Assembly (NCBI GenBank): GCA_018662825.1
Contig: JABJFI010000065.1
Coordinates: 4,223 to 68,222 of the forward strand
Reading direction: 5' to 3'
From: Methanobacteriota archaeon
Lineage (GTDB): Archaea > Thermoplasmatota > Poseidoniia > Poseidoniales > Poseidoniaceae
DNA length: 64,000 bases
The notes beneath the pieces were generated by a model. The model saw only the letters and a program-made list of their open reading frames with translations. It was not told the origin of the DNA and did not search any database. The translations under genes and the position numbers were made by a program. Shown here one piece after another: positions 58,475 through 59,518 of this stretch; within the stretch, counting starts at the first letter, position 1, and each line of letters starts with the position of its first letter.

Positions 58475-59518
58475 TCAACTGGTTGCTGTATACTTTTCAT
58501 CATAATATGTAGAAATACCAGGCACACTCGATATTAACGAAGAATAGGCACCCAAATGAGCCTCAGCATTGGTAGCGACAATACCTGGGGTATTGAGTAT
58601 TGAGGATAACATGTCCTGTCCTTCTTCACTGTAACTCAAATTTACCAATGCCGAAACAATGGCATCACGTGTCGAATTATCAAGCGTATTTGGCTGATAC
58701 ATCAACGGATGGCTTGGGGCTTGCCCAAATGCTGGAAGTGTAACATAATTCTCTCGAATCAAACACCAATCTTCATTCTCAGAAGGGTTTTCATCGCCAC
58801 AATATGTTTCAATCGTGCTGTCTTTAGCAAATGCCACATCTCCAACACCTTCCGACAAACATTTCAATGCTCCACTATAACCGTAGTAAGGTGTTCCAGA
58901 TTCAGGAATACTCGCATCTTCAGAAAAATAATTGAATATTGTATTTCGAAGTGATTCAATATCATCATCATCCCCGACAACTTCAGCGTATTCTTGCCCA
59001 ATGAAATAGCCCATTGGAATCAACATTCCTGCTGATTTAAGCCAACCAGTATGGCAACTGGTTTGGCCTTCGAGTACAGCAAAGGGGTCAGTGGAATCGT
59101 TTCCATCGTTGAGGGCAATTTCTGCTTCACTACCATTGAGGACCCAAGCATGTGCATTATAGTAAGTTCGTCCGTCAGATTTTTGATCTGCTGCCATCAC
59201 TTCAAGGTCATACATTTTCCAACCAACCCATCCTGCACCACCATCCATGAAGGCTATGTCAGCACTACCAAAACGAAGGGCTTGAAGTGCTAATGCATCA
59301 GATGTAATTGGATAAATTTCAACCTCTACACCTATTTCAGTACTAAGGTAATCAGCTAATTTTTGAGGGTTTTCGCTGAATGAGGTATAGTCATCTTTTA
59401 CTGAAAAAGCAATACGAATGACTTCTTTATCGCTTTTTTCATTGCCGATACAACCGGAAAATGCGGCTATTGAAATAAGAAAAATCATTAGACAAATTTT
59501 GTGATATTGGGCCGTCAT
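58475..59518 (-). CDS. lipoprotein substrate-binding protein, transferrin-like (PhnD/transferrin superfamily)
   Basis: Lipobox AAFSGC. The blocks [65 protein letters not shown] and APSHPLM line up with the transferrin N-lobe blocks that carry Asp63, Tyr95, Thr120/Arg124, Tyr188 and His249. Confidence 0.9.
   Translation of the reverse strand: [347 protein letters not shown]

Follow-up and report, generated by a model that had tools for sequence, protein, structure and literature searches.

Does an archaeal ATP-binding cassette (ABC) importer that bears phosphonate names carry phosphonate, or does it carry iron? The question is raised by a gene in a 64,000-nucleotide stretch of contig JABJFI010000065.1 (positions 4,223 to 68,222 of the forward strand; assembly GCA_018662825.1) from an archaeon of the order Poseidoniales; the whole of this 64-kb stretch is called the window, and positions are those of the window. 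The gene, at 58475-59518 on the minus strand, encodes a binding protein for which we use the working name TfL, for transferrin-like, and genes for an ABC ATPase and a permease follow it. Homologs of TfL carry the JGI name [quoted passage not shown] and the databases already record a homology to transferrin, both in the NCBI name "PhnD/SsuA/transferrin family substrate-binding protein" and in precomputed Pfam PF00405 hits. Since the transferrin ligands are kept in TfL and its promoter contains an iron-repressor operator, the likeliest cargo of the transporter is iron and not phosphonate, and we consider it probable that the operon encodes an iron-repressed ABC importer whose binding protein would take up Fe(III) together with a synergistic anion. 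A first-pass annotation of the locus had suggested that a phosphonate label could be wrong, and the ligand columns, DtxR/TroR-type promoter boxes, neighboring DtxR genes, and an exchange with FTR1 described below all agree with that suggestion.

Family membership and ligand positions of TfL

The first-pass annotation had called TfL a transferrin homolog from an alignment by eye, and profile comparison bears this out: the match to Pfam Transferrin (PF00405) scored 71.2 bits (E = 1.1e-19) in two stretches, well above the gathering cut-off of 20.3. The only other Pfam family reported for TfL at E ≤ 1 was Phosphonate-bd (PF12974; E = 4.5e-20, 72.5 bits, cut-off 27); Pfam reported no match to an SBP_bac-type family, to which FbpA and FutA belong, and none to Fea1. 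The PhnD equivalog model TIGR03431 gave 28.3 bits against a cut-off of 261.1, and TIGR01098 gave 42.5 bits against a cut-off of 112. Among the 105 PDB sequences matched by TfL in a phmmer search (E ≤ 10), the best 60 are all transferrin-family proteins, with lactoferrin at 3.4e-30 and a lone lactoferrin C-lobe at 9e-14, and a profile built from 42 family sequences reached lactoferrin at 3.7e-35 and single lobes at about 1e-17. BLASTP comparison of TfL with E. coli PhnD (NC_000913.3) aligned 81 N-terminal residues only (E = 0.001). When every one of 1.84 billion cluster representatives was compared with TfL by phmmer, only 375 were matched at E ≤ 0.001; canonical E. coli-type PhnD lies beyond the reach of that threshold, and the sole PhnD-like matches belong to an intermediate group discussed below.

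The predicted structure leads to the same family. In a Foldseek search of the PDB with an AlphaFold2 model of TfL (predicted local distance difference test score, pLDDT, of 91.3), the top 16 matches are all transferrins (E = 4e-16 to 8e-15), with the phosphite-binding protein PtxB next at rank 17 and AioX at rank 44; template modeling (TM) scores to the transferrins are only 0.5-0.65. From the sequence matches, TfL is almost certainly a member of the transferrin family.

Ligand positions were mapped by HMMER alignment to lactoferrin, by alignment of the 42-sequence profile to the human transferrin N-lobe, and by a wider alignment of lobes. The protein and its principal sites are as follows.

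58475 to 59518, minus strand: TfL gene, encoding a 347-residue single-lobe transferrin-family substrate-binding lipoprotein (open reading frame list, Pfam, PDB sequence matches, AlphaFold2, and Foldseek)
59450 to 59518, minus strand: predicted signal peptide and lipobox, residues 1-23, AAFSG-C23 (conservation of G22 and C23, helix prediction)
59243 to 59245, minus strand: Asp92 codon, in the column of the iron ligand Asp63 of transferrin and Asp60 of lactoferrin
59159 to 59161, minus strand: Tyr120 codon, in the column of the iron ligand Tyr95 of transferrin and Tyr92 of lactoferrin
59027 to 59056, minus strand: C155-H-T157-G-W-L-K161-S-A163-G164, the putative synergistic-anion site with the first disulfide cysteine
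58877 to 58879, minus strand: Tyr214 codon, in the column of the iron ligand Tyr188 of transferrin and Tyr192 of lactoferrin
58709 to 58711, minus strand: His270 codon, in the column of the iron ligand His249 of transferrin

The HMMER alignment places the putative anion-site block on SCHTGLGRSAG of lactoferrin, with T157 and K161 on Thr117 and Arg121; the transferrin counterparts of T157, K161, A163, and G164 are Thr120, Arg124, Ala126, and Gly127. Profile residues 210-272 align with residues 184-251 of the human transferrin N-lobe, which sets Y214 on Tyr188 and H270 on His249. The ligand blocks that the first-pass annotation had recognized by eye (Asp63, Tyr95, Thr120, Arg124 with Lys in its place, Tyr188, and His249) were thus reproduced by the two alignments together. 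Across the 42 homologs, D92, Y120, Y214, H270, T157, K161, A163, G164, and four cysteines are all invariant, as are all ten residues from C155 to G164. The Asp/Tyr/Tyr/His quartet is also conserved across the archaeal and eukaryotic lobes of the wider alignment, and Y120 is taken as the ligand tyrosine of the YY pair because it is invariant and Y119 varies. In the quartet columns, E. coli PhnD has Tyr, Tyr, Glu (the column before this Glu holds a His), and Asp, and S-T-S-G, part of PNSTSG in that region, is aligned under K161-S-A-G164; this agrees with the statement in the first-pass annotation that PhnD lacks these blocks and uses an STSG loop.

Two transferrin disulfide positions had also been claimed, and here the outcome was mixed. 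Every transferrin lobe has cysteines at the positions of C155 and C220. The other two, C240 and C252, do not vary within the archaeal family and recur in the transferrins of ichthyosporeans, but the alignment did not place them on cysteines of animal-type lobes. The hallmark of the clade, as read from these alignments, is the combination of the quartet, a C-H-T-G...K/R-S-A-G anion site, and conserved cysteines, and this combination is shared with eukaryotic transferrins. The lipobox proposed in the first-pass annotation is likewise well conserved, G22 and C23 being invariant in the 42 homologs, and a hydrophobic N-terminal helix is predicted at residues 2-21.

Operon, promoter boxes, and proposed iron-type control

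Three minus-strand genes are closely packed in the order TfL, ATPase, and permease.

58475 to 59518, minus strand: TfL gene, as above
57802 to 58527, minus strand: PhnC-like ABC ATPase; the longest open reading frame (ORF) overlaps the 3′ end of the TfL gene
56894 to 57847, minus strand: PhnE-family ABC permease (BPD_transp_1, TIGR01097, conserved gene order)
59521 to 59527, minus strand: putative Shine-Dalgarno-like GGTGAGG before the TfL start codon, read from the sequence
59531 to 59544, no strand assigned: proximal operator box TTAGGGTACCCTAA, a perfect palindrome 13-26 bp upstream of the ATG
59554 to 59562, minus strand: putative TATA-like element TTTCATATA between the boxes, read from the sequence
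59564 to 59577, no strand assigned: distal operator box TTAGGGCAACCTAA, 33 bp from the proximal box

The likely start of the ATPase is an ATG at 58471-58473, 2 nt past the TfL stop codon. The ATPase matches Pfam ABC_tran with 101.8 bits and is not a PhnC equivalog, because its TIGR02315 score of 135 bits falls below the cut-off of 266; the permease matches BPD_transp_1 with 59 bits and passes the PhnE equivalog model TIGR01097 (221.6 bits against a cut-off of 216.7). PhnC/PhnE-type genes had been placed beside TfL in the first-pass annotation, and an ABC ATPase and a PhnE-type permease do follow it.

The gap upstream of TfL is 105 bp long and contains two palindromes, 33 bp apart, with the extended consensus tTTAGGGnnnCCTAAa. 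Relatives of TfL were collected from a scan of one genome per species, which returned 396 stretches, and locus counts given here refer to the best 80 of these (L001-L080). An exact search for the pattern TTAGG-N4-CCTAA over 1.15 Mb of related loci and the window returned 112 matches, against a chance expectation of about one; 110 of them fall within the TfL promoter, and the other two immediately precede the ATPase gene. With at most one mismatch allowed, the box recurs in each of the 79 related loci from Poseidoniales (Marine Group II and III) that could be evaluated, 62 of which have at least two boxes, and the remaining 1.09 Mb contains only 20 such sites. The arms of the box are constant among loci and its center is variable, which is the signature of a site for a dimeric regulator. 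In the three loci L211-L213, a TATATATA stretch occupies the same place between the boxes.

The DtxR-family regulator TroR of Haloferax volcanii binds the operator TTTAGGC-NNN-CCTAAAANAN (with a CCTAAA half), often in tandem about 30 bp apart, as defined by chromatin immunoprecipitation sequencing (ChIP-seq), RNA sequencing (RNA-seq), and reporter mutagenesis (PMC10783522). TroR is iron responsive, iron-uptake promoters being repressed when cells are iron replete, and the manganese-associated SirR motif of the same species differs from the TroR motif (PMC10783522). To judge by sequence, the consensus and tandem spacing of the TfL boxes match the TroR operator and not the SirR motif.

No DtxR-family gene was found within the window. 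In other loci, such a gene adjoins the TfL operon: L048, L052, and L058 (Marine Group III), L081, L083, L084, and L212/L213. The Marine Group III regulator combines Fe_dep_repress, Fe_dep_repr_C, and FeoA domains and is encoded divergently beside a two-lobed TfL gene, with three boxes between the two genes and a flavodoxin gene close by. Three of the four distant TfL homologs examined also have an adjacent DtxR gene (P0140, P0125, and P0151): that of P0140 is on the same strand, and that of P0125 points the other way, at a locus that also has four TTTAGGCnnnCCTAAA boxes and, in the vicinity, a ZIP transporter. A regulator homolog with 72% identity (P0404) is named by NCBI as coming from a Poseidoniales archaeon. 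No TTAGG-N4-CCTAA boxes lie upstream of the GC-rich homologs P0140 (L081) and P0137 (L082). Their promoters hold other inverted repeats (TTTCG...CGAAA), of the types AGGTTTCG...CGAAACCT and TTTCGAGG.CCC.AAA, which may represent a different operator for a DtxR paralog. Two further genes were seen at L058: the flavodoxin gene beside the DtxR gene (5267-5767) and, after the permease gene, a protein (10805-11728) with a weak match to the heme-binding lipoprotein HmuY (23.5 bits, below the cut-off).

A metagenome-wide scan for the double box listed at least 120 contigs. The genes directly downstream, among the matches listed, are TfL itself (many), the DtxR gene, FTR1, and a Fea1-family lipoprotein; in other archaea among these matches the double box precedes FeoB, NRAMP, a ZIP-like protein, and siderophore-type Peripla_BP_2 binding proteins. 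None of the genes identified behind the double box in the matches listed belongs to a phosphorus-related family. The Fea1-family lipoprotein (PF07692, 99 bits; 383-421 residues; L146 2648-3799, also L153, L160, and L161) stands directly behind a double TTAGG-N4-CCTAA operator on marine contigs of 46-48% GC, has a lipobox of the LAGC style, and is probably archaeal. Transferrin-like and phytotransferrin-like proteins may therefore both occur in marine archaea under one iron regulon. FTR1, Fea1-like, and FeoB homologs were looked for in the window and the 80 related loci, and none was found.

An exchange of cassettes was found at one genomic position. An identical Poseidoniales DtxR protein is encoded at L211, L212, and L213, in flanks that are 98.6% and 92% identical and with three boxes in a 115-bp intergenic region at each locus. 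The divergent neighbor of this DtxR gene is FTR1 at L211 (4113-4886) and the TfL-ATPase-permease set at L212 (2212-4888) and L213. The FTR1 and TfL cassettes thus interchange under one iron-type operator, and they most likely serve the same need.

Distribution and relation to eukaryotic transferrins

The best homologs share from 99% down to 60% identity with TfL and belong to metagenome-assembled genomes of Poseidoniales and Thermoplasmatota. The best 80 loci are labeled Marine Group II or III, or more broadly Euryarchaeota, Methanobacteriota, or Thermoplasmatota, with a single exception in L039, a single-cell assembly labeled Deltaproteobacteria. The ATPase and permease genes follow TfL in every one of these loci whose contig reaches far enough. 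We found no TfL relative in viral contigs.

Approximately 32 of the 80 loci encode a bilobal binding protein of about 700 residues formed by in-frame tandem duplication, for example, a 704-residue ORF in the original Marine Group II genome CM001443 (L045, 8001-10115) and one of 706 residues at L058 (6918-9038); L079 has four consecutive lobe-sized matches. Where the two lobes were inspected (P0121 and L058), neither has lost the ligand motifs. The second lobes of P0122, P0123, P0126, P0128, and P0130 have lost the quartet and the anion-site residues and have kept the four cysteines, a parallel to certain animal transferrin-family proteins in which a lobe has ceased to bind iron. The archaeal lobe duplication appears to be independent of the one in animal transferrins.

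The intermediate group noted above consists of PhnD-like proteins, P0201 (Heimdallarchaeota), P0209, P0220, and P0221 (loci L086-L089), which have the Asp/Tyr/Tyr/His quartet together with the phosphonate-type loop FTSxTGSSG and no cysteines, and which score strongly as Phosphonate-bd. No DtxR neighbor was found for P0221, P0201, or P0275, which are quartet-keeping PhnD-like proteins. By their sequences, the proteins of this group look like intermediates between PhnD and transferrin, and the presence of the quartet in them indicates that it is older than the transferrin family proper.

The closest eukaryotic matches of TfL are multilobe proteins of the ichthyosporeans Chromosphaera, Creolimax, Amoebidium, Ichthyophonus, and Abeoforma; identity is about 31% to ichthyosporean lobes over the whole lobe and about 24% to animal-type lobes. 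A neighbor-joining tree was built from 54 lobes with 200 bootstraps, leaving out the degenerate second lobes as rogue taxa. The transferrin-like sequences were split from the PhnD-like outgroup in 100% of replicates, and the eukaryotic lobes were monophyletic in 96%, with no archaeal sequence nested among them and with the ichthyosporean lobes grouping with animal transferrins and not with the archaeal clade. The prokaryotic transferrin-like proteins were monophyletic in only 39% of replicates, and the deep branching order is soft because neighbor joining is a simple method. Since the eukaryotic lobes form a clade with the archaeal sequences outside it, the archaeal proteins are not a recent import from eukaryotes; they stand as sister to eukaryotic transferrins, or possibly form the grade that gave rise to them. 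It was reported previously that transferrin and phytotransferrin share an origin among phosphonate-binding proteins (PMC7676907).

Proposed function, neighboring genes, and known systems

We infer from these data a scheme in which Fe(III) is the substrate, carbonate is the anion, the metal is handed over to the permease, and the operon is repressed by iron. A lipid on Cys23 would tether TfL to the outside of the membrane, and inorganic Fe(III) would be captured in the cleft of the protein through Asp92, Tyr120, Tyr214, and His270. Thr157, Lys161, and the start of the helix at Ala163-Gly164 would bind the synergistic anion, most likely carbonate. Loaded TfL would then pass its iron to the PhnE-type permease, driven by the PhnC-type ATPase. 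Under iron sufficiency, a DtxR-family repressor would occupy the two boxes that bracket the TATA-like element and switch the operon off. That the operon serves metal-regulated uptake is very probable, and Fe(III) with carbonate is, a step less firmly, the likely substrate pair by the residues of the site.

Several observations weigh against an iron importer, and some favor a rival reading, in which TfL would be the PhnD of a phosphonate, phosphite, or phosphate ABC importer and its likeness to transferrin would reflect shared ancestry only. In favor of the rival, TfL exceeds the Phosphonate-bd threshold, as given above, the permease exceeds the PhnE equivalog cut-off, homologs have the JGI phosphate/phosphonate name, and phosphonate transport has been listed as a core trait of Marine Group II (PMC6336850). 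With regard to iron, the quartet recurs in archaeal PhnD-like proteins whose anion loop is of the phosphonate type, so that by itself it neither marks a transferrin nor proves iron binding; Lys161 stands where human transferrin has Arg124, although the same column holds Lys in most of the ichthyosporean and animal-type lobes sampled; the AlphaFold model best fits open and apo forms of transferrin and is apparently in an open state; and the comparison with TroR spans a large phylogenetic distance. Against a PhnD role, however, stand the TIGR03431 score, 28 bits where 261 is the cut-off, and the replacement of S-T-S-G by K-S-A-G with transferrin residues in the remaining contact columns. The first-pass annotation had noted no phn catabolic gene nearby, and this held when Pfam was run on window ORFs of at least 150 residues up to 52 kb and on the main ORFs from 52 to 62.5 kb: C-P lyase, phosphonatase, PhnY/Z, PtxD, pst, and PhoU are absent from the ORFs scanned. 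Nor were genes for phosphonate or phosphite catabolism or for phosphate-starvation control present among the called genes around TfL in the loci with annotated flanks. An iron-type DtxR operator lies in the promoter, and the operon changes places with FTR1 in one slot. We therefore regard a phosphonate-type importer as very unlikely.

A substrate other than Fe(III)-carbonate for a metal-regulated importer, be it manganese, zinc, another hard ion, or Fe(III) with a different anion such as phosphate, is less easily set aside, yet we judge it unlikely. The DtxR family includes regulators that respond to manganese or zinc, which also tells against iron as the signal, and transferrins bind several hard metal ions, while FbpA-type proteins use phosphate as their anion. 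The JGI name of the regulator is "DtxR family Mn-dependent," a ZIP transporter lies near one homolog, and NRAMP genes are found behind the double box in other archaea. However, two invariant tyrosines, an aspartate, and a histidine, together with the Thr/Lys/helix-start site, make up the Fe(III)-carbonate set of transferrins; the boxes match iron-type TroR and not manganese-type SirR; the genes that share the box in marine archaeal contigs, FTR1 and Fea1-like, are both iron related; and the exchange partner of the TfL operon is FTR1. It was also considered that a eukaryotic transferrin might have passed recently into marine archaea and been kept there for a nontransport role, the closest eukaryotic sequences being those of marine or aquatic unicellular holozoans at about 31% identity and Pfam Transferrin usually being regarded as a eukaryotic family. 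A study of marine binding proteins left this family out of its tallies (PMC11485210). We rejected such a transfer as highly improbable because of the shape of the tree and the setting of the gene in an operon: the eukaryotic lobes are monophyletic in 96% of the 200 bootstraps with the archaeal proteins outside them, TfL has a prokaryotic lipobox, the ATPase and permease follow wherever the contig extends among the 80 loci, and the family extends from Marine Group II and Marine Group III to more distant prokaryotic lineages, with a separate DtxR link in each. An Fe(III) importer under iron-type control remains the reading that we prefer.

Other genes near the operon were recorded as well. Directly upstream of TfL, on the same strand, lies a gene for a 363-residue membrane protein without a Pfam match (59624-60715, minus strand), and beyond it are a divergent ABC ATPase (60620-61645, plus strand) and an ABC-2 permease (61642-62472, plus strand). 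This trio is syntenic with the TfL operon in many, though not all, related loci. On the other side, a riboflavin/flavin adenine dinucleotide (FAD) cluster at 51958-54199 (minus strand) encodes lumazine synthase, riboflavin synthase (Lum_binding), a cytidylyltransferase-like protein that is possibly an archaeal FAD synthetase, and DHBP synthase. A xylose-isomerase-like TIM-barrel protein (AP_endonuc_2) at 54341-55516 (plus strand) has a strongly charged, repetitive C-terminal tail, KEKPAEKEKPAEKEKPAKKKAPAKKKAPAKKKA...DDDDLF, and a homolog of nicotinamide adenine dinucleotide (NAD)-dependent glycerol-3-phosphate dehydrogenase is also among the window neighbors of TfL. The genes around TfL assign the window to a Poseidoniales (Marine Group II) archaeon, and the flavin cluster, ordinary in itself, supports the archaeal assignment.

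Marine Group II ranks with the most abundant archaeal groups of surface seawater, and the locus bears on both marine iron biogeochemistry and transferrin evolution. In the literature searched, within which the trees and regulons of McQuaid et al. 2018 and Leyn and Rodionov 2015 did not fall, we found no paper on archaeal or prokaryotic transferrin homologs, none that treats this archaeal family as transferrins whose ligands are preserved, connects it with iron regulation, or doubts its phosphonate label, and no description of iron acquisition in Marine Group II. Tentatively, and with somewhat less than even confidence in the proposal as a whole, Poseidoniales and their relatives may import inorganic iron with a genuine transferrin, in a family that would be the closest living prokaryotic relative, and possibly the source, of eukaryotic transferrin and that duplicated its lobe independently. 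If so, the phosphonate transport counted by comparative genomics as a core Marine Group II trait (PMC6336850) would be iron transport, and the trait would be misassigned. Iron supply to these archaea would depend on carbonate, as it does in diatoms, and would hence be sensitive to ocean acidification, and a widespread iron-regulated, possibly carbonate-dependent uptake route would have been missed by ocean models and omics surveys. The step from a phosphonate-binding protein to transferrin could then be reconstructed from living intermediates, in a graded series that runs from canonical PhnD through the PhnD-like proteins with the quartet and the archaeal transferrin-like proteins, which have the carbonate site and the cysteines as well, to the transferrins of ichthyosporeans and animals. 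With such a series, the long-standing proposal that a phosphonate-binding protein gave rise to transferrin comes within direct reach of biochemical tests and ancestral reconstruction.

Several known systems can be set beside the TfL operon. PhnD, PtxB, HtxB, and AioX (PF12974) share its fold, its passing of the Pfam threshold, and its partnership with a PhnC-like ATPase and a PhnE-family permease, whereas TfL has no S-T-S-G loop, none of the PhnD contact residues, no link to phosphonate catabolism, and an iron-type operator. The lobes of serum transferrin, lactoferrin, and ovotransferrin match TfL in sequence and fold, in the ligand and anion columns, and in the positions of Cys155 and Cys220, and the bilobal build of eukaryotic transferrins recurs in many TfL relatives of the same archaeal order. 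Unlike these proteins, TfL has one lobe, a lipid anchor, an ABC operon, Lys at the position of human Arg124, and only about 24% identity to animal-type lobes; since it is lipid anchored and encoded with an ABC ATPase and permease, delivery would be by docking on the permease and not by receptor-mediated endocytosis. Ichthyosporean transferrins come closer, with the full ligand set, the anion-site Lys, and the cysteine pairs C155/C220 and C240/C252, but they are eukaryotic, have two to five lobes, and lack an operon context. In regulation, the TroR regulon is alike, with tandem TTTAGGC-NNN-CCTAAA-like boxes about 30 bp apart as compared with 33 bp in the TfL promoter, but it belongs to another archaeal class, and in the Poseidoniales recognition of the box by a DtxR-family protein is predicted from sequence, with the regulator gene of this genome outside the window. 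The phytotransferrin ISIP2a/Fea1 is alike in its proposed chemistry, the carbonate-dependent capture of Fe(III) at the surface of a marine plankter, but Pfam detected no sequence relationship between it and TfL.

In its proposed mechanism, TfL is like FbpA and FutA with FbpBC and FutBC. In those systems a surface or periplasmic protein binds free Fe(III) through tyrosinates and a synergistic anion, delivers it to an ABC importer, and is controlled by an iron-responsive repressor. An FbpA/FutA-type scheme is exemplified by SAR11 (PMC11485210). TfL differs in belonging to another binding-protein family, as a sequence-level member of the transferrins. FbpA resembles transferrin by its periplasmic-binding-protein fold only, without detectable sequence similarity at the family level. 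The scheme proposed for the Poseidoniales operon would thus be that of FbpABC and FutABC, carried out by a protein of the transferrin family.

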